Part shown: positions 3,698-39,564 of the stretch, one piece after another
Layout of the letters: each line of letters opens with the position of its first letter
Position numbering within the stretch: the stretch's first letter is position 1
IMG/VR virus record: IMGVR_UViG_3300010357_001332
Reading direction: 5' to 3' (one strand)
DNA length: 64,000 nt
From: a virus
Lineage: Duplodnaviria; Heunggongvirae; Uroviricota; Caudoviricetes
The notes under the pieces: model-generated
Seen by the model: only the letters and a program-made list of their open reading frames with translations
The model's database searches: none
What the model was told of the DNA's origin: nothing
Program-made: the position numbers and the translations under genes

Positions 3698-3958
3698 CTA
3701 CTTACACTCCTTACAATAAGCAATACCTTTACCACCATTAACAAGTTCTTCTACAGGAACAGATCTACCACATTTAGAACAATTACTAAATCCTTCAACT
3801 AAAATAGGTCTTAATTCACCTTGTCTCCAATTTTTACAATTTAAACCTTCTTCTTCAGAAAAAGATTTCTTCATACCGTAATCACCATTAGGATGAAAAC
3901 AATGATAGATACTAATAAAGACGCAGTTATTACAATGTTTTATTTCTTTAGAATCCAT
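3698..3958 (-). CDS. zinc-ribbon protein
   Basis: CNNC...CSKC..CKEC cysteine pairs. Confidence 0.4.
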   Translation of the reverse strand: MDSKEIKHCNNCVFISIYHCFHPNGDYGMKKSFSEEEGLNCKNWRQGELRPILVEGFSNCSKCGRSVPVEELVNGGKGIAYCKECK

Positions 3959-4112: not shown

Positions 4113-4185
4113 CTCTGGTGACTGGGTTCGAACCAGTGACCATTCGGTTAACAGCCGAAGGCTCTTCCAACTGAGCTACACCAGA
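4113..4185 (-). tRNA. tRNA-Asn (anticodon GTT)
   Basis: Reverse complement folds canonically: acceptor TCTGGTG/CACCAGA, D-arm GCTC-AGTTGGAA-GAGC, anticodon stem TTCGG/CCGAA with loop CTGTTAA, T-arm ACTGG-TTCGAAC-CCAGT, discriminator G. Confidence 0.8.
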
Positions 4186-4526: not shown

Positions 4527-5260
4527 ACCGCTCCTTCTTCAAATAGAGTATTTTGCTCTACTTTCTTTTCAGATTTCTTATTTTGAATTTTAATAGGCTT
4601 ATATTTAATAGTTACAAGTTTAGATTCCCTAATTATCTCACGATATTGTGAAAGTTTGGCTTCTAACTGGGGCATATGCCTCTGAATGATAAGCATATTT
4701 TTGTCCCAAAGATCTGCAGTATATTCATTTTCCACTAACTCAATAGAATGACCGAATTTGTTAAACCTCTCCCAAACTTTTTCAAAAGAACCTTCATTTA
4801 AAAGAGATAACTGATAAATACAAAGTGTTTTTCCTGTCGCAGTTTTGTGCAAAAGCTCCCCTGACAGTTGAATACCTAAAGATGGAAGAAGAAACTTTCT
4901 TTGTTCTTCATTATCACCTACAATAGTATCTTCAAACAATCTTCTACCTTCTAAAATGCTTTGAAAGATAGTAGAGCAATATAAAGCTGTTCCAATACCT
5001 TGTCTTCTATATTCTGGAACAGTTCCAACACTACCAAATTTCAAAATATGACTTTGAGGACGTCCAGCAGCCATCATTGCACCAAGAATATTACCAGAAG
5101 TATCTTCACAATGCCAGCAGCTGATAGTATTTCCTTTTATTTTATCTTTAATTCCCTCAAGAAAAGTAAATCCACCGAGAGCACAACTAATTTTGGGATG
5201 ATTAAATATTAACTGTACTTTTTCAGCTTGCGATGATTCACTAATACAAATCTTATACAT
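4523..5260 (-). CDS. GNAT family N-acetyltransferase
   Basis: Acetyl-CoA-binding motif A-like RRQGIGTALY. Confidence 0.5.
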   Translation of the reverse strand: MYKICISESSQAEKVQLIFNHPKISCALGGFTFLEGIKDKIKGNTISCWHCEDTSGNILGAMMAAGRPQSHILKFGSVGTVPEYRRQGIGTALYCSTIFQSILEGRRLFEDTIVGDNEEQRKFLLPSLGIQLSGELLHKTATGKTLCIYQLSLLNEGSFEKVWERFNKFGHSIELVENEYTADLWDKNMLIIQRHMPQLEAKLSQYREIIRESKLVTIKYKPIKIQNKKSEKKVEQNTLFEEGAV

Positions 5261-5283
5261 GATATCTCCTTTAAAAAAGAATG

Positions 5284-5358
5284 TGGAGACGTGAGGTCTC
5301 GAACCTCAGTCCATGCTAGACTGTAGTCTAGCCGCTCTCCCTGTTGAGCTACGCCCCC
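5284..5358 (-). tRNA. tRNA-like gene with non-canonical anticodon arm (isotype undetermined)
   Basis: Canonical acceptor GGGGGCG/CGTCTCC (two G-U), D-arm GCTC-AACAGGGA-GAGC and T-arm TGAGG-TTCGAGA-CCTCA. The anticodon-arm position holds the perfect palindrome GCTAGACT-AC-AGTCTAGC, a 7-8 bp stem with no 7-nt loop. Confidence 0.5.
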
Positions 5359-5396
5359 GATATGCTTAATTATATGAATTGGATAGAATTACTCTA

Positions 5397-5720
5397 TTAT
5401 TTTTTTTCATCGACAGATTTATTATCTATCAATGCTAATCCTAATAAAGCACTCTCTAAAACGGTGATTTTATTATGTGGAAGTTTTAATTCATATATAT
5501 AATTGATAAATTCAACTACTTCATGAATAAAAGTAGAATATCTCATAGCAGGAGGAGCAGATTTGTTTATTAGAATTTCTAATGTAGCAAATCTGGCTTC
5601 TCCCATATCATTATCTATCTTTTTACCATTAACTAATTTAACTGTAATAACATGAGGTCCAATAATAATTCTTTTTGGTACCTTATTTCTCTTTACACTA
5701 TTTTTAGTTATTCTTATCAT
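5397..5720 (-). CDS. hypothetical protein
   Basis: 107-aa ORF with overlapping stop/start to the neighbour. Confidence 0.45.
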   Translation of the reverse strand: MIRITKNSVKRNKVPKRIIIGPHVITVKLVNGKKIDNDMGEARFATLEILINKSAPPAMRYSTFIHEVVEFINYIYELKLPHNKITVLESALLGLALIDNKSVDEKK

Positions 5721-8795: not shown

Positions 8796-8974
8796 TTATT
8801 TATATAGATTAAAAAAGAAGAATGTAAAGATACTAACCGAAATTTCTTTGGGCCAAGATCGGAACACTATCTCTATACCAATCGATCGTATTGATAGAGC
8901 CTCGGTGGCCACTCATTCTGGTGGAGTCCCCTTCCAAACATAAGCGTATCTCTAGGCCTTAGTACATTCTTCAT

Positions 8975-9065
8975 TGGCAGTGTTGGGCCTCGAACCCAAT
9001 GTATCCCAGAACGGACTCGAACCGCTTCTTCACCTCGTCAGGTGTGACAACCCAGTCTCACTGCC
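8975..9065 (-). tRNA. tRNA-like element, 91 nt, no recognisable anticodon loop
   Basis: Perfect 7-bp acceptor GGCAGTG/CACTGCC and T-arm TTGGG-TTCGAGG-CCCAA. The interior carries a CACCT-GACG-AGGTG tetraloop hairpin and a second T-arm-like hairpin AGCGG-TTCGAGT-CCGTT instead of an anticodon arm. Confidence 0.35.
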
Positions 9066-9076
9066 TAATACCTATT

Positions 9077-19893: not shown

Positions 19894-21264
19894 TTTTATT
19901 ATTTTTTCCTGATATACTTAAAATTAGGTAAAATTTTATATTATTCTTTTATGCAAGTTACGCAAGAAAAGAAATTAAAGATAAAAAACTCTTTAGCTAA
20001 AACTCGAGAGAAAAGAAAATCTCAAGTTTGTAAAGTTTATACTTTAAAGATAGATAAAAGTCATTTAAATTCTATACAAAAGAAATGGTTGAAAAAAATC
20101 TTTATAGAAGCTAGATGGTTTTATAATTATATTATATCACAAGATAATATTTTTCTTAATACTTCTTTATATAAACAAAAAGAAATTACGATAAAAGTTT
20201 TAAGTAAGTTTGAAAAAAGAAATATAGAATTTTTATCTTCTCAAATGAAACAAGGTTTATATGAGAGAATAAAAGAAGCTATTAAAGTTTTGTCTAAACT
20301 TAAAAAACTTAATTTTACTATTGGTAGATTAAAATTCAAATCTGAAATAAATTCCATCGATCTTCCTCAATATAATAATACTTGGAAATTTAATAAAACT
20401 AGAATTAAAATACAGGGATTAAAGAAACCATTTAAAGTTCATGGTTTAAAACAAATTCCAAAAGGAAGTGAATTTGCTAATGCGAAACTTGTAAGAAAGC
20501 CTTCTGGTTATTATATTCAAATTACAACCTTTCAACAAAGAAAAGAAAAACAAAAAACTAATAAAGAAGTTGGTTTAGATTTTGGAATTAAAGATTCTAT
20601 AACAACTTCTGATGGTGAAAAATTAAATATTAAAATTCCAGAATCTTATAGATTAAAAAGACTTCAAAAGGGTTTTGCAAAGAAAAATAATTTAAAATCA
20701 AATAAAAGAAAAAAGAATCTTATTAAAATAAAACAAGAATATGAAAGAATTTCAAATCAGAAAAAAGATCAAGTAAATAAACTTGTATCTTATTTAAAGA
20801 ATAATTATGATACAATTTATATTCAAGAAGAACAAATAGCAAATTGGCATAAAGGTTTATTTGGTAAACAAGTTCAACATTCTGCACTTGGGGCAATAAA
20901 GTCTAAATTAAAAACTTTAGAAAGCACCCAAGTAATATCGAAATGGGAACCAACTACTAAATTATGTCCAGTTTGTGGATTACTAAATAAAATATCTTTA
21001 TCAGAAAGAACTTATAAATGTTCTTGTGGTTATGAAAAAGATAGAGATACTCATTCAGCTAATAATATACTTTTAATTGGAAAGTCTAAATCCAATTCTG
21101 TTATGGAGCGTAACAGTACAACATCTGAGAATAAGATCAATGAATTTTCAAAGAGCAATCTAGAAAATTTAAATCATGATTCGTTGAAGATGGAAGCTAA
21201 AGTTTTTTAGACTTTAGTAGCTCACCTACCTGCTTCTTTCCAGAAAGTAGAATAACTTTTCTCT
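19894..21264 (+). mobile_element. IS200/IS605-family TnpB-only insertion (IS1341-like) in reverse orientation
   Basis: The only large plus-strand gene, sitting in an intergenic gap of the minus-strand operon; ends not mapped. Confidence 0.5.
19951..21210 (+). CDS. tnpB: TnpB (IS605 OrfB) RuvC-like RNA-guided nuclease
   Basis: 419 aa with a C-terminal zinc finger CPVCG...CSCG and RuvC-III-like DRDTHSANNIL. Confidence 0.7.
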   Translation: MQVTQEKKLKIKNSLAKTREKRKSQVCKVYTLKIDKSHLNSIQKKWLKKIFIEARWFYNYIISQDNIFLNTSLYKQKEITIKVLSKFEKRNIEFLSSQMKQGLYERIKEAIKVLSKLKKLNFTIGRLKFKSEINSIDLPQYNNTWKFNKTRIKIQGLKKPFKVHGLKQIPKGSEFANAKLVRKPSGYYIQITTFQQRKEKQKTNKEVGLDFGIKDSITTSDGEKLNIKIPESYRLKRLQKGFAKKNNLKSNKRKKNLIKIKQEYERISNQKKDQVNKLVSYLKNNYDTIYIQEEQIANWHKGLFGKQVQHSALGAIKSKLKTLESTQVISKWEPTTKLCPVCGLLNKISLSERTYKCSCGYEKDRDTHSANNILLIGKSKSNSVMERNSTTSENKINEFSKSNLENLNHDSLKMEAKVF

Positions 21265-26232: not shown

Positions 26233-26765
26233 ATATATCCTCTTATAAAATTAATTTTCAAATAGATCCCGACCTGATCACCTTCAGGCCGGGATTGATA
26301 GTATCATCGAATACTTTTCAAGAGTATTTGTAGCTGATGATTGTGCTCAATTTTAGAATGTACCTTTCCGTTTAACTGAATTCTTAGCTTTACAGGAGAC
26401 GACCTTCCTGCTGGTCCACCCCTCGACTAAATCTACATTTCATGAATATAAACTTAGTCGAGGGGACAGGAATCGAACCTGCGACTTCTCCTCATTAGTA
26501 ATTCAGACTTGACTACATTCCTAGCACATGTTCTTAACTTAGGGTAATAACTTAAATCTTAAATGATTCTGTTTACCGTTTCAGCACTCTCCGTTAATTT
26601 ATTAATGCTATTCGGAGAGGAAGGATTCGAACCTTCAAGCTCAATGAGCAATCATTATATCAAATTAAATTTAAACCTAAGCCTGTCTATTGCTTATAGC
26701 AATAGAACCCTTTATGGTGGAAGGACTCGAACCTTCACTAACCCCCTTTACCATAACTAAAACTA
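26233..26765 (-). other. 530-bp non-coding region packed with tRNA-like T-arm motifs and hairpins
   Basis: Three GGTTCGAnTCC T-loop hairpins (reverse complements at 26466..26482, 26620..26636, 26719..26735), each followed or flanked by perfect hairpins; no full cloverleaf could be drawn by eye; GC-rich stem ATCCCGGCCTGA/TCAGGTCGGGAT at 26258..26291. Confidence 0.45.
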
Positions 26766-27509
26766 TTACTTCTCAAATACAAAATCAAGGAGCTTTGTAC
26801 CAAAATCTTCTTGTTTTACTTCAATAGAATTAGCTTCTTCTCTAGCAACTTTAATAGCTTTATCTAATGCACGAATTTTTTCAAGCATTTTTTCTTTATC
26901 TTGCTTTGCAATACATCCAGAAAATTTTGTAGTAGACCAAGTACCAATAACCACATCTTCATTGTATACCTCTACTTGGGCAGGATGCTTATCTGTTGCT
27001 TCCGCTTTAACATGGTTCTTCATTACTTTTTTTGTTTTAAAAGTATCTTTAGAATCTGAAACATATTGCATAGAATCCTCTTTCCATGTCCAATTCTCTG
27101 CAGGATCAAGAACAGGAAGGGCATTTACAAATGTGTGCAAATCTGTAAGCTGCTTTTCAAGAAAAAGAAGATGTGTAACGGGTACTTGATTAAGAATTAT
27201 TTTACCATCTACTAACACATCAGCTTTAGCATTACAGTTTGCAACATCTTGTGTTGCACATACATTATACATATCTTCACAAACTTCTCTTGCTTCTTTA
27301 ATACATTCAAATACAGAAGTTTGAATCTGCTTATCCTCATTAGGAAAACGATCTCCTTCTTCATCCTTAGGTGTGTATCGTTTTGCTAAACCCTGAAATA
27401 AATCTGCTTTTTCTAAAGTATGATATACTTTAGAAAGTACTTTTTCCTTGCGACTTTTTTGACCATTGGCAATGGCAATAACTTGATTAAGTTTTAATGT
27501 TTTGTTCAT
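26766..27509 (-). CDS. hypothetical protein
   Basis: 247-aa ORF. Confidence 0.5.
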   Translation of the reverse strand: MNKTLKLNQVIAIANGQKSRKEKVLSKVYHTLEKADLFQGLAKRYTPKDEEGDRFPNEDKQIQTSVFECIKEAREVCEDMYNVCATQDVANCNAKADVLVDGKIILNQVPVTHLLFLEKQLTDLHTFVNALPVLDPAENWTWKEDSMQYVSDSKDTFKTKKVMKNHVKAEATDKHPAQVEVYNEDVVIGTWSTTKFSGCIAKQDKEKMLEKIRALDKAIKVAREEANSIEVKQEDFGTKLLDFVFEK

Positions 27510-27537: not shown

Positions 27538-28536
27538 TTATTTATGAAAACCTACTGCTCCTCCAAAATCATCGCTAGATTTTTTCTTGAACATTAGTTT
27601 TCTAAGTAGCTCACATGCTTCCTCAAATGTTTTATCTAAGCATTTAATTGATATAACTAATTCTGCTAAACCAGCAAAAGAGAAACCTTCTGTACCCTTT
27701 ACATATCTAGTTAACTCATCTTGATCTTCTATCTTTAATTTTTCAGCTAAATATATTCTTCTCATTACTTCAGAAGGCATTCCTATTTTTATTACTCTAT
27801 CAAATCGTCTCGGACGATTAACAATACGAGGATCCAATTTTTCTGGATAGTTAGTAGTAGCTATATGCAATACATGATTAGTATTAGATTCACCATCTAA
27901 AAATGATAGTAAACTTTCTTCTCCATATCTGTTAATAATAGAATCTATATCTTCAAATAAGCAGATAACTCTTCTATGAGGTTCTATTTTTCTTACTACT
28001 TCGATTCCTTTAATAAGAAGAGCAGGTGCCGTATTTCCGTTTAAAACTATACCATGTTCTTCTTTGATAAGAGCATTAAGAATTTGTTGTACAAGTATAC
28101 TCTTTCCACTTCCTTGAGGACCATAAAACATATATCCTCTTTTGTGTAGAAAGCCATACTTTTCAAATAGATCTGCTTTCTTCCAAAAAGAAGAAATTTC
28201 TGAAGTAATTTGACTCATAATACTATCAGGAAATGTTAACCAATTATCTACTGATAAATCTTGTTTAGTGAAAAGTATTCCCATATTAGTTCTATCTAGA
28301 TCATAGAATCCTGCAGGTATAGCTTTAATAGTATTACCGGAAGCCACAAAAGAATAACTAGATAAAGCAGACCATTGATTAACATCTTGCGGATGTTTTT
28401 GTTGATTATCCTCTGATAACTCTATTGGGGCATCTTCTGTTCCTACTATCTCTGCTATTTCCTTTCTAAGATTTAGAATATCTGAATTAATCTCTGTACC
28501 AAATTCTTCTATATCGTTCATCCATGTCTCCATCAA
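27538..28536 (-). CDS. AAA family ATPase
   Basis: Walker A GPQGSGKS and Walker B VICLFEDIDS. Confidence 0.6.
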   Translation of the reverse strand: MMETWMNDIEEFGTEINSDILNLRKEIAEIVGTEDAPIELSEDNQQKHPQDVNQWSALSSYSFVASGNTIKAIPAGFYDLDRTNMGILFTKQDLSVDNWLTFPDSIMSQITSEISSFWKKADLFEKYGFLHKRGYMFYGPQGSGKSILVQQILNALIKEEHGIVLNGNTAPALLIKGIEVVRKIEPHRRVICLFEDIDSIINRYGEESLLSFLDGESNTNHVLHIATTNYPEKLDPRIVNRPRRFDRVIKIGMPSEVMRRIYLAEKLKIEDQDELTRYVKGTEGFSFAGLAELVISIKCLDKTFEEACELLRKLMFKKKSSDDFGGAVGFHK

Positions 28537-39177: not shown

Positions 39178-39564
39178 ATGCTACATCTAAACTCAAATAC
39201 AATCGTTTTTGCTATAGGAAATAACCAACACGTTATTAAGTTTGCAAACAATCTAGAAGATTTAGTGCAGCAAACTAAAAGATTAATAGATTCATTAACT
39301 AATCCGGAGAATTTAAAAAATTTAGATACTGATGTAGCATCTCCGTATACTGTTACATTATTTGCTAATCAGCAAAAACAAAAACTAGATCAAATAGAAA
39401 AACAATTAGAACCAACTCTTCAACAATTTAAAAAACAAATTTTAGATATCTATAATGAAGTAGAACTTTATACAAGAGATATGTATAGTTATAATAATCT
39501 AACTGGTGAAACATATTCTGTTAGTGATATTGAATTACCTAGAGAAAAATCATATATAGTATAA
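39178..39564 (+). CDS. hypothetical protein (plus strand)
   Basis: RBS GGAGAAAAGAG before the ATG; divergent from the minus-strand genes. Confidence 0.4.
   Translation: MLHLNSNTIVFAIGNNQHVIKFANNLEDLVQQTKRLIDSLTNPENLKNLDTDVASPYTVTLFANQQKQKLDQIEKQLEPTLQQFKKQILDIYNEVELYTRDMYSYNNLTGETYSVSDIELPREKSYIV

Follow-up and report, generated by a model that had tools for sequence, protein, structure and literature searches.

A large structured RNA with circularly permuted tRNA-like domains encoded next to DUF7873 genes in phages and bacteria

A gap between genes on the minus strand of a Caudoviricetes genome record (IMG/VR IMGVR_UViG_3300010357_001332; the 64,000 nt analyzed are referred to below as the window) lies at 26233–26765, directly downstream of a gene for a protein of the DUF7873 family. 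The gap is the gene for one large conserved structured non-coding RNA, not for several small ones, because it has long-range helices (P2a and P2b), just one terminator, and blocks whose order is conserved. That this is a conserved functional RNA coupled to DUF7873 is, in our opinion, close to certain. An earlier reading of the sequence by itself (the first-pass annotation) had offered several explanations for the gap, among which a family of small structured RNAs comes closest in spirit: the RNA is indeed structured, but it is a single large molecule. The constituents of the locus, and the grounds on which each was delimited, are as follows.

26766–27509, minus strand: gene of the DUF7873 protein, 247 aa, the constant partner of the RNA (Pfam PF25283, E 2.3e-95)
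26262–26760, minus strand: whole structured RNA, ~490 nt with a core of ~350 nt; inferred ends, from the DUF7873 stop codon to the T-rich tail past the terminal hairpin
26713–26755, minus strand: module A, an acceptor/T-arm minihelix composed of TATGGT, an internal loop, GAAGG-TTCGAGT-CCTTC, and ACCATA (Rfam tRNA model, 19 bits)
26686–26712, minus strand: linker AAGGGTTC, then hairpin TCTATTGC-TATAA-GCAATAGA (conserved linker)
26658–26681, minus strand: hexamer array 1, CTTAGG TTTAAA TTTAAT TTGATA, which follows YUNARN at 6-nt intervals (periodicity across the family)
26563–26655, minus strand: tRNA-like domain B, permuted (family-wide pairing and compensatory changes)
26532–26562, minus strand: hexamer array 2, TTAAGA TTTAAG TTATTAC CCTAAG TTAAGA (the same 6-nt family periodicity)
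26343–26527, minus strand: domain C with its stalk, i.e., P2b, P2a, P3, and junction strands (compensatory changes in 50 homologues)
26394–26492, minus strand: tRNA-like domain C, permuted (sub-threshold Rfam matches on the same topology; Levitt pair)
26303–26341, minus strand: lineage-specific hairpin ATCATC...GATGAT, at the site that holds a nested tRNA in other phages
26268–26293, minus strand: terminal hairpin CCCGGCCTGA-AGGTGA-TCAGGTCGGG with a T-rich tail, presumed terminator of the DUF7873-RNA transcript

Three transfer RNA (tRNA) T-loops of the form GGTTCGAnTCC are present within the gap on the minus strand (26469–26479, 26623–26633, and 26723–26733), and a fourth is found at 9013–9023. 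The four occurrences in the window compare with 0.09 expected from dinucleotide shuffles, and none of 100 shuffles reached four. The first-pass annotation had described the corresponding T-arm hairpins correctly, including the near-identical pair GAAGG-TTCGAAT-CCTTC (26620–26636) and GAAGG-TTCGAGT-CCTTC (26720–26736). The first of this pair is followed by CTCTCCG (26613–26619), a loop, and CGGAGAG (26587–26593). The T-arm GCAGG-TTCGATT-CCTGT (26466–26482) is followed by CCCCTCGACTAA (26454–26465), a loop, and TTAGTCGAGGGG (26419–26430). The two perfect hairpins reported in the position of an acceptor 3′ strand, of 7 and 12 bp, are thus both in place. Around the remaining T-arm, the flanking segments TATGGT (26750–26755) and ACCATA (26713–26718) are real, but they account for six of the seven pairs claimed for TATGGTA and CACCATA. 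The gap was also rightly described as GC-rich, its G+C rising to 0.40 at 26300–26599 compared with 0.25–0.34 in the flanks. The accompanying description as the longest intergenic gap is nearly accurate: it is the third-longest run free of minus-strand open reading frames (ORFs) of at least 50 aa, and the two longer runs contain plus-strand ORFs, namely the TnpB gene at 19951–21210, which occupies most of one, and 39178–39564, which occupies about half of the other. The minimum free energy of the whole RNA has a z-score of −5.5.

Neither ARAGORN nor the Rfam tRNA model, both in line with checks suggested in the first-pass annotation, detects an ordinary tRNA in the gap. ARAGORN reports three tRNAs across the window and none within 26233–26765. 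At the gathering score, the sole Rfam 15 match in the window is a tRNA-Asn at 4113–4185, with none in the gap, where the tRNA model remains below threshold (19 vs 29 bits) and aligns only if the D and the anticodon arms are both deleted. The sole match obtained by blastn of the gap against 50,697 phage records is a 43-nt T-arm stretch of a tRNA-Pro.

Modules B and C are complete tRNA-like domains that are circularly permuted. The permuted order runs from an anticodon-stem strand through the variable region, the T-arm, a 7-bp acceptor closed by a loop, U8, and the D-arm to the second anticodon-stem strand. Thus, domain B consists of ATGAT, a long variable arm TGCTCATTGAGCT, the T-arm (26620–26636), the acceptor, TG, the D-arm, A, and ATCAT; its 7-bp acceptor CTCTCCG/CGGAGAG is closed by a 19-nt loop, and its D-arm is CTG-AAACGGTAAA-CAG (26569–26584). 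Domain C consists of AGGAGA, the variable loop AGTC, the T-arm (26466–26482), the acceptor, TG, the D-arm GACC-AGCAGGAA-GGTC (26401–26416), G, and TCTCCT; the acceptor strand CCCCTCG runs on as the 12-bp hairpin formed by 26454–26465 and 26419–26430. Both D-arms feature U8, A14, and G18G19, with TG (U8 and N9) preceding and one purine following. The statement in the first-pass annotation that no T-arm fits a full D-arm therefore holds for the sequence 5′ of the T-arms, but canonical D-arms are situated directly 3′ of the two closed hairpins.

The anticodon-stem strands that bracket each module (ATGAT/ATCAT in B, AGGAGA/TCTCCT in C) form stems that open outward, into the YUNARN hexamer arrays in the case of domain B and into P3-P2a-P2b in the case of domain C; neither domain has an anticodon loop. 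In the stalk of domain C, the anticodon stem is connected to P3 (CTGAATT/AATTCAG, 26500–26506 with 26376–26382) by an internal loop that is conserved, AAGACUGA (in the window, GTAAAGCTAAG). Beyond P3 lies a junction in which the strands AUCGA and CUUAAACG are invariant, followed by P2a (GAATGTA/TACATTC, 26514–26520 with 26356–26362) and P2b (GTGCT/AGCAC, 26523–26527 with 26343–26347); the junction strands of this stalk in the window are GTCAAG and TTAAACGG.

The first line of evidence for this architecture is covariation, assessed from MAFFT alignments of compact family members and counts of structure pairs, with no covariance model or R-scape. In the 3′ half, eight helices were scored in 50 homologues (P2b, P2a, and P3; the anticodon, T, acceptor, and D stems of domain C; and the terminal hairpin). 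The proportion of paired cells is 89.4%, compared with 66.4% after shuffling and 40–50% with partners slid; compensatory changes are seen in 52 of 54 pairs, and 0/500 shuffles reach the observed value. The covariation score is 0.615, compared with 0.207 in the control. Individually, P2b, P2a, and P3 each have compensatory changes and are 81–90% paired, and 11 of the 12 pairs of the terminal hairpin of the homologues covary. The T, acceptor, and D stems of domain B are 98.2% paired in 47 sequences, with compensatory changes in 13/15 pairs (0/500 shuffles). For the anticodon stem of this domain, which varies in length, the longest stack by position 26 averages 5.3 bp vs 2.9 bp in shuffled sequences.

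The second line of evidence is the conservation of tRNA signature positions. U8 is invariant (47/47 in domain B and 50/50 in domain C), as is A14. G18G19 is present in 46–47 of the 47 domain B sequences; in domain C, G19 is found in 49/50 and a G at the preceding position in 35/50. A21 is conserved in 46/47 and 46/50 sequences, respectively, and the T-loop TTCRAnY is conserved as well. The Levitt pair 15:48 of domain C is A:U in 46 homologues and G:C in 4, with no exception among the 50; the window has G:C.

The RNA is also under strong purifying selection. It is 95.9% identical between the window and six sister contigs with the same gap; the identity of the DUF7873 gene is 92.7% at the nucleotide level, third codon positions holding 45 of the 54 differences. 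Each of the 15 differences in the RNA either affects a loop or an unpaired stretch or replaces A-U with G.U; in particular, sister contigs differ only in the loop of the hairpin TCTATTGC-TATAA-GCAATAGA, and likewise only in the loop of ATCATC...GATGAT. Overall, the gap evolves about fivefold more slowly than the synonymous sites of the neighboring gene. The sister contigs carry an extra 96-aa ORF directly after the RNA terminator (L001, 7277–7567), which the window lacks; a 90-aa ORF of the window is the second ORF of the sister contigs at this place (94% nucleotide identity).

The DUF7873 family has 5601 detected homologues at 40–64% identity. The linkage to DUF7873 was assessed in a larger sample, comprising 80 loci from species-representative genomes and 80 from IMG/VR. 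An exact-peptide search of IMG/VR for close relatives of the protein returned none, and an alignment-based search was used instead. An iterated nhmmer profile of the family, which also matches the window RNA, locates the RNA within 700 nt downstream of the DUF7873 stop codon, on the same strand, in 147/150 non-redundant loci. Two exceptions hold it 0.8–2.4 kb downstream, bringing the total to 149/150. The RNA starts 1–145 nt past the stop codon. The loci cover at least 10 bacterial phyla plus IMG/VR phages. Among the carriers are Streptomyces, Nocardia, Dactylosporangium, Micromonospora, Sorangium, Pirellulales, Chloroflexota, Ktedonobacteria, and Spirochaetota, and further Armatimonadota, Acidobacteriota, Verrucomicrobiota, Cyanobacteria, and Deinococcales; Planctomycetota and Myxococcota are thus represented. 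Two loci with ~60% protein identity, one from a bacterial metagenome-assembled genome (MAG; L007) and one from a phage-like contig (L008), have a gap of 450–600 nt with the same block order and shared motifs. The linker AAGGGTTC is common to both, and the hairpin next to it has another sequence at the same position. Module A has a counterpart at the same place in these two loci and in L089 and is missing from most bacterial loci; it is a lineage-specific 5′ add-on.

No other gene shares this constancy. No upstream neighbor is conserved (an AAA domain occurs in 2/113 upstream ORFs), and no family accounts for more than 4 of 139 downstream ORFs; therefore, the unit consists of DUF7873 and the RNA. 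The classical AAA ATPase encoded directly upstream of DUF7873 in the window (27538–28536, minus strand), which is weakly similar to FtsH, CDC48, and IetA, was considered as a third component and rejected as lineage-specific on the same count. In the window, the RNA shares the strand of DUF7873, begins directly past its stop codon, and runs to the terminal hairpin; from this we infer that the two are co-transcribed. The homologues of this hairpin are followed by a T-run in low-GC members, and most conserve the loop GGnTA; a simple terminator scan of the window did not call the hairpin. It should be noted that the linkage is not strictly that of a 3′ untranslated region (UTR), because the RNA can be distant or duplicated: in Nocardia sp. 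CA-151230 (L058) it is found 2.4 kb downstream of DUF7873, and in a Ktedonobacterales MAG (L035) two tandem copies (4536–4929 and 5192–5511) are located ~0.8 kb downstream.

Several cultured phages carry the cassette. In Gordonia phages Phendrix and GodonK, DUF7873 (gene 144/152) is situated in the middle of a tRNA array, with tRNAs on both sides of the gene in Phendrix; in Arthrobacter phage Mimi, the gene is annotated as a "hypothetical protein." The unannotated gap that follows DUF7873 in the Gordonia and Mimi records holds the RNA (E 1.6e-53 and 2.3e-61). Klebsiella phage vB_kp_MJ359 and Ralstonia phage phiRSL1 encode homologues of ~30% identity, and two permuted tRNA-like domains follow the gene in each. 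Vibrio phage D497 and Rhizobium phage TM30 have a single such domain. In four cultured-phage records whose gap was inspected, all or most of it is unannotated; a short ORF and a tRNA are annotated within that of D497. The D497 tRNA (L292, 2597–2669) lies just downstream of the tRNA-like domain; its loop was read by eye as TTTTAAT and, if this reading is right, the anticodon is UUA, that of a possible ochre suppressor. A reverse search of IMG/VR with the D-arm pattern proved uninformative, the pattern also matching ordinary tRNAs and tRNA-tRNA junctions.

Among the unusual constituents of the RNA are arrays of four to five YUNARN hexamers on either side of domain B. With a period of 6 nt, U and A are found in 52–55 of 55–56 homologues, the base between them being free to vary, and the hexamer "A" is invariant (55/55 sequences). 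Array 2 repeats array 1 in direct orientation. CTTAGG of array 1 and CCTAAG of array 2 can pair in the lineage of the window; the proposal that the arrays are two strands of one helix was nonetheless rejected, since their central positions do not covary. One frame reads the hexamers as NUN-ARN codons. A coding or tag sequence was rejected on the invariance at the nucleotide level: the invariant A would impose the codons AGA, AAA, and UUA even in Streptomyces, where they are very rare, and the coding reading is therefore unlikely. The explanation that we prefer for the arrays is a protein that reads the RNA with a 6-nt period.

Processing of the tRNA-like domains is hinted at by their acceptor ends. 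The loop closing the acceptor ranges from a few nucleotides to well over 50 across homologues. NCCA directly follows the acceptor 3′ strand in 13/47 domain B sequences, usually as ACCA, and in 19/50 domain C sequences; both proportions greatly exceed the chance value of ~1/64, which is arithmetic for equal base use rather than a measured control. The YrlA RNA of M. smegmatis, which has a closed 7-bp acceptor, is cleaved by RNase P and acquires CCA in vivo (PMC4201824). Ordinary tRNAs can also be inserted into the RNA: several IMG/VR phages contain ARAGORN tRNAs with varied anticodons nested before the terminal hairpin (L136, 4099–4171; L118, 4088–4157; L119, 4059–4129; L121, 4105–4175; L125, 4069–4140). 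A tRNA-like sequence was read inside the domain B closing loop of L154 (~3830–3940), where ARAGORN made no call. A chimeric tRNA called in L007, combining the domain B D-arm with the domain C T-arm, is a peculiarity of that locus, the two acceptor stems being different from each other in other loci.

Concerning the protein, the AlphaFold2 model of DUF7873 (mean predicted local distance difference test score, 90) is composed of four helices, all long, and a sheet that includes a long hairpin. DUF7873 has no matches among PDB sequences, NCBIfam, PADLOC, and PHROGs, and a literature search found no paper that mentions it.

Taken together, these data suggest a mechanism that we consider somewhat probable. 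The RNA would fold as two L-shaped tRNA mimics on stalks and would bind DUF7873 to form a two-component ribonucleoprotein (RNP), by analogy with the adjacent genes of SmpB-tmRNA (tmRNA, transfer-messenger RNA) and Ro60-YrlA. The tRNA elbows and acceptor ends would be presented to machinery that reads tRNA shape. Candidates are RNase P, 3′ trimming and CCA-adding enzymes, and T-loop/D-loop modification enzymes; the ribosome and tRNA-targeting toxins or defense enzymes are further possibilities. DUF7873 itself may read the parts of the RNA that do not resemble tRNA, the best candidate site being the 6-nt periodic arrays. In many homologues, the closed acceptor loops would probably be opened by RNase P and 3′ processing, giving a multi-piece RNA with CCA ends. 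That the cassette is placed in tRNA arrays of phages suggests an involvement in tRNA metabolism or in conflict directed at tRNAs; because of this placement, we favor the view that it helps to supply tRNAs, control their quality, or protect them during infection.

A number of observations weigh against this mechanism. Gene linkage only is what suggests a physical association of DUF7873 with the RNA, and the L090/L091 lineage has DUF7873 without the RNA. The protein is not basic (pI 5.2–8.7), domain and structure searches revealed no recognizable RNA-binding or catalytic domain in it, and Foldseek of its model against PDB and BFVD yielded nothing at E < 0.001. The central bases of array 1 and array 2 show no consistent covariation across the family, and the anticodon stem of domain C is just 69% paired in the MAFFT alignment. 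Finally, neither acceptor of the window RNA is followed by CCA, and that of domain C continues without interruption as a 12-bp helix; for these reasons RNase P processing is doubtful in the phage of the window.

A more far-reaching version of the same proposal is, in our judgment, a serious possibility that falls short of being probable. According to it, DUF7873 and the RNA would constitute an undescribed, ancient, and widespread RNP of bacteria and phages, with the RNA as a double tRNA mimic, opened by RNase P into several CCA-ended pieces, that acts directly on translation or tRNA maturation. It might, for instance, fill two tRNA sites simultaneously, or tRNA-targeting immunity might encounter it as a decoy or sensor; DUF7873 would represent a new RNA-binding fold that reads the 6-nt repeats.

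Among the alternatives, the best surviving one, although unlikely, is that the RNA is a cis-acting 3′ UTR of the DUF7873 mRNA, serving as processing punctuation, as an exonuclease block, or in mRNA release or stabilization, in particular where the gene is part of a tRNA array, and having no function in trans. It agrees with the position of the RNA, always on the same strand and 1–145 nt past the stop codon, with the lack of a promoter-like site between gene and RNA in the window, and with the tRNAs on both sides of the gene in Phendrix; moreover, tRNA-like 3′ ends stabilize transcripts, as in MALAT1/mascRNA and viral tRNA-like structures (TLSs). However, a stabilizer has no need for ~350 nt of conserved architecture, for the invariant single-stranded blocks (CTTAAACG, ATCGA, and the hexamer arrays), or for two complete elbows and a Levitt pair that covaries, and the terminal loop is conserved across phyla of 30–70% G+C. 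The 0.8–2.4 kb that separate the RNA from the gene in L058 and L035, and its duplication in the latter, also disagree with a cis-acting element. The viral TLS and mascRNA signals resemble the DUF7873-linked RNA in that a tRNA shape recruits RNase P, the CCA-adding enzyme, or synthetases to a transcript that is not a tRNA, at the 3′ end of an mRNA. Theirs, however, is a single, terminal element with an open acceptor, whereas here two internal, closed, permuted domains are embedded in a larger fold.

Distinctly less likely is a multi-piece rescue or tagging RNA of the tmRNA type, opened by RNase P, charged, and entering the ribosome, with DUF7873 in the role of SmpB and the arrays as the message. 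The similarities are considerable, above all to two-piece tmRNA: each is a tRNA mimic without an anticodon, with a small dedicated protein encoded adjacently (smpB adjoins ssrA), and each can be phage-borne and has a permuted gene, in which the acceptor 3′ strand is upstream of the 5′ strand. The best Rfam match of the gap, below threshold, is the permuted junction of the two-piece beta-proteobacterial tmRNA (beta_tmRNA) on domain C (E 2.5e-5), NCCA is enriched past the acceptor stems and present in many homologues, and the hexamers can be read as NUN-ARN codons. Against this, the G3:U70 alanine identity pair is absent, with G:U in 1/47 domain B and 4/50 domain C sequences, and both domains have full D-stems, unlike tmRNA. 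The Rfam tmRNA models score 23.9 of 84, 17 of 47, and 6.5 of 47 bits. The invariant hexamer A (55/55) indicates a constraint at the RNA level; no conserved ORF, tag frame, stop codon, resume context, or pseudoknot series was noticed, without a systematic scan; and the partner is PF25283, not SmpB. The presence of two tRNA-like domains is a further difference from tmRNA.

A Y-RNA-like (YrlA/YrlB) set of RNAs of Ro60 quality control is improbable to a still greater degree, despite a resemblance in design. YrlA, the partner of Ro60/Rsr, has the same permuted order of T-arm, loop-closed acceptor, and D-arm, with tRNA tertiary pairs and a covarying Levitt pair, and is found in actinobacteria and their phages. 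The YrlA model RF02553 matches domain C weakly (21 bits), in an alignment to model positions 28–81 that keeps this order. As with the DUF7873-linked RNA, the YrlA gene is directly downstream of a protein gene, rsr, and RNase P cleaves the version with a 7-bp acceptor, which also acquires CCA (PMC4201824). The match, however, is 21 bits against a gathering score of 69, and 20 homologous loci have none. A sweep of the window for Ro60, SmpB, and RtcB covered 53 minus-strand ORFs of at least 110 aa; there is no TROVE/Ro60 among these, nor among the 113 upstream and 139 downstream neighbors of the sampled loci. The Ro60-binding stem was not noticed, although the motif was not explicitly searched for. 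Instead of Ro60, the partner is DUF7873, and instead of one domain the RNA has two such domains (three in the window) in 350–490 nt, its modules being joined by covarying long-range helices into one RNA of ~350 nt that also features hexamer arrays and a conserved terminal hairpin.

That the domains are circularly permuted or split tRNA genes maturing into working tRNAs, as suggested in the first-pass annotation, is scarcely credible. The suggestion correctly captured the topology (T-arm, closed acceptor, and D-arm, i.e., the 3′ half followed by the 5′ half through the acceptor stem), and NCCA and the 7-bp acceptor agree with it, but joining the ends gives no 7-nt anticodon loop. The stems instead enter the long covarying helices P3/P2 or the arrays, and ARAGORN finds no such gene; to our knowledge, the bulge-helix-bulge splicing machinery needed for circularization is confined to archaea and eukaryotes and lacking in bacteria. 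Domains B and C thus mimic tRNAs and are not genes for them. Two further proposals of the first-pass annotation, namely decay of a tRNA cluster and an attP-type site built of tRNA 3′ fragments, are very improbable: tRNA-like pieces do occur in a phage that carries other tRNAs, and the family profile also matches junctions of adjacent tRNA genes, as would fit an origin from tRNA arrays, but the ~5-fold slower evolution, the compensatory conservation across phyla, and the near-universal linkage to a protein gene rather than to an integrase (the upstream ORF in just 2/113 loci; none in the window sweep) or a host tRNA, in the same form in bacterial chromosomes, argue against non-functional remains; conservation with covariation between phyla is also not a trait of att sites.

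With these alternatives weighed, the DUF7873-linked RNA belongs among the tRNA-mimicking non-coding RNAs with a dedicated protein, its closest analogue being YrlA in design and SmpB-tmRNA in logic. In size and setting, it also resembles GOLLD and ROOL, large ornate phage RNAs that occur among tRNA genes, sometimes with a nested tRNA; all three are large (>350 nt), intricate, and phage-carried. For the GOLLD and ROOL models, however, the gap yields no match at the gathering score or with E relaxed to 10, and 20 homologous loci yield none either; the DUF7873-linked RNA is defined by its tRNA-like domains and strict linkage to one protein family and is common in chromosomes, for example those of Streptomyces. 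No description of it was found in Rfam 15 or in the searchable literature, where searches for tRNA-like, permuted, or phage RNAs yielded just YrlA, tmRNA, and general surveys. There is, in our opinion, a substantial chance that DUF7873 and its RNA are a categorically new RNP.

Few large structured RNAs are conserved over many bacterial phyla, and each one characterized has revealed new biology. The partner in this case is a protein with no fold match found that is present in thousands of genomes, including those of cultivable phages and Streptomyces. The cassette should be instructive for several questions, namely how tRNA shape is exploited beyond decoding, why a lone protein gene resides in phage tRNA arrays, and what DUF7873 is. 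An Rfam-style model of the RNA would annotate hundreds to thousands of blank gaps of 350–600 nt.

Several minor observations concern other parts of the window. A second odd tRNA-like element is present at 8975–9065 (minus strand), within a G+C-rich stretch of 281 nt that is free of ORFs (8796–9076). It features a 7-bp acceptor, GGCAGTG/CACTGCC, followed by A, and two hairpins that resemble T-arms: AGCGG-TTCGAGT-CCGTT takes the variable-arm position, and TTGGG-TTCGAGG-CCCAA adjoins the acceptor; its "anticodon" hairpin, CACCT-GACG-AGGTG, has a loop of just 4 nt. The element is called by neither ARAGORN nor Rfam (E up to 1), and its fold z-score is just −1.7. At 5283–5358 (minus strand), ARAGORN reports a "tRNA-???" with a 2-base anticodon (ac), with no Rfam call at the gathering score; either a tRNA whose anticodon loop is abnormal or a further tRNA mimic may be present here.

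The plus-strand gene at 19951–21210 is of the TnpB/IS605 OrfB type, with OrfB_IS605 and Cas12f1-like TNB domains (phrog_506, E 4e-45), and is the sole large plus-strand gene in an otherwise all-minus phage region. A Pfam sweep of the minus-strand ORFs identified a sigma factor (305–994), a peptide deformylase, a Band_7 protein, an AAA_5 and VWA pair, R2K ATP-grasp proteins, a radical SAM protein, a cREC_REC (cyclic-phosphate processing receiver) domain, a DenV-like Pyr_excise protein, and GIY-YIG/NUMOD3 homing endonucleases. These genes make up a large accessory set of the T4-like or jumbo type.

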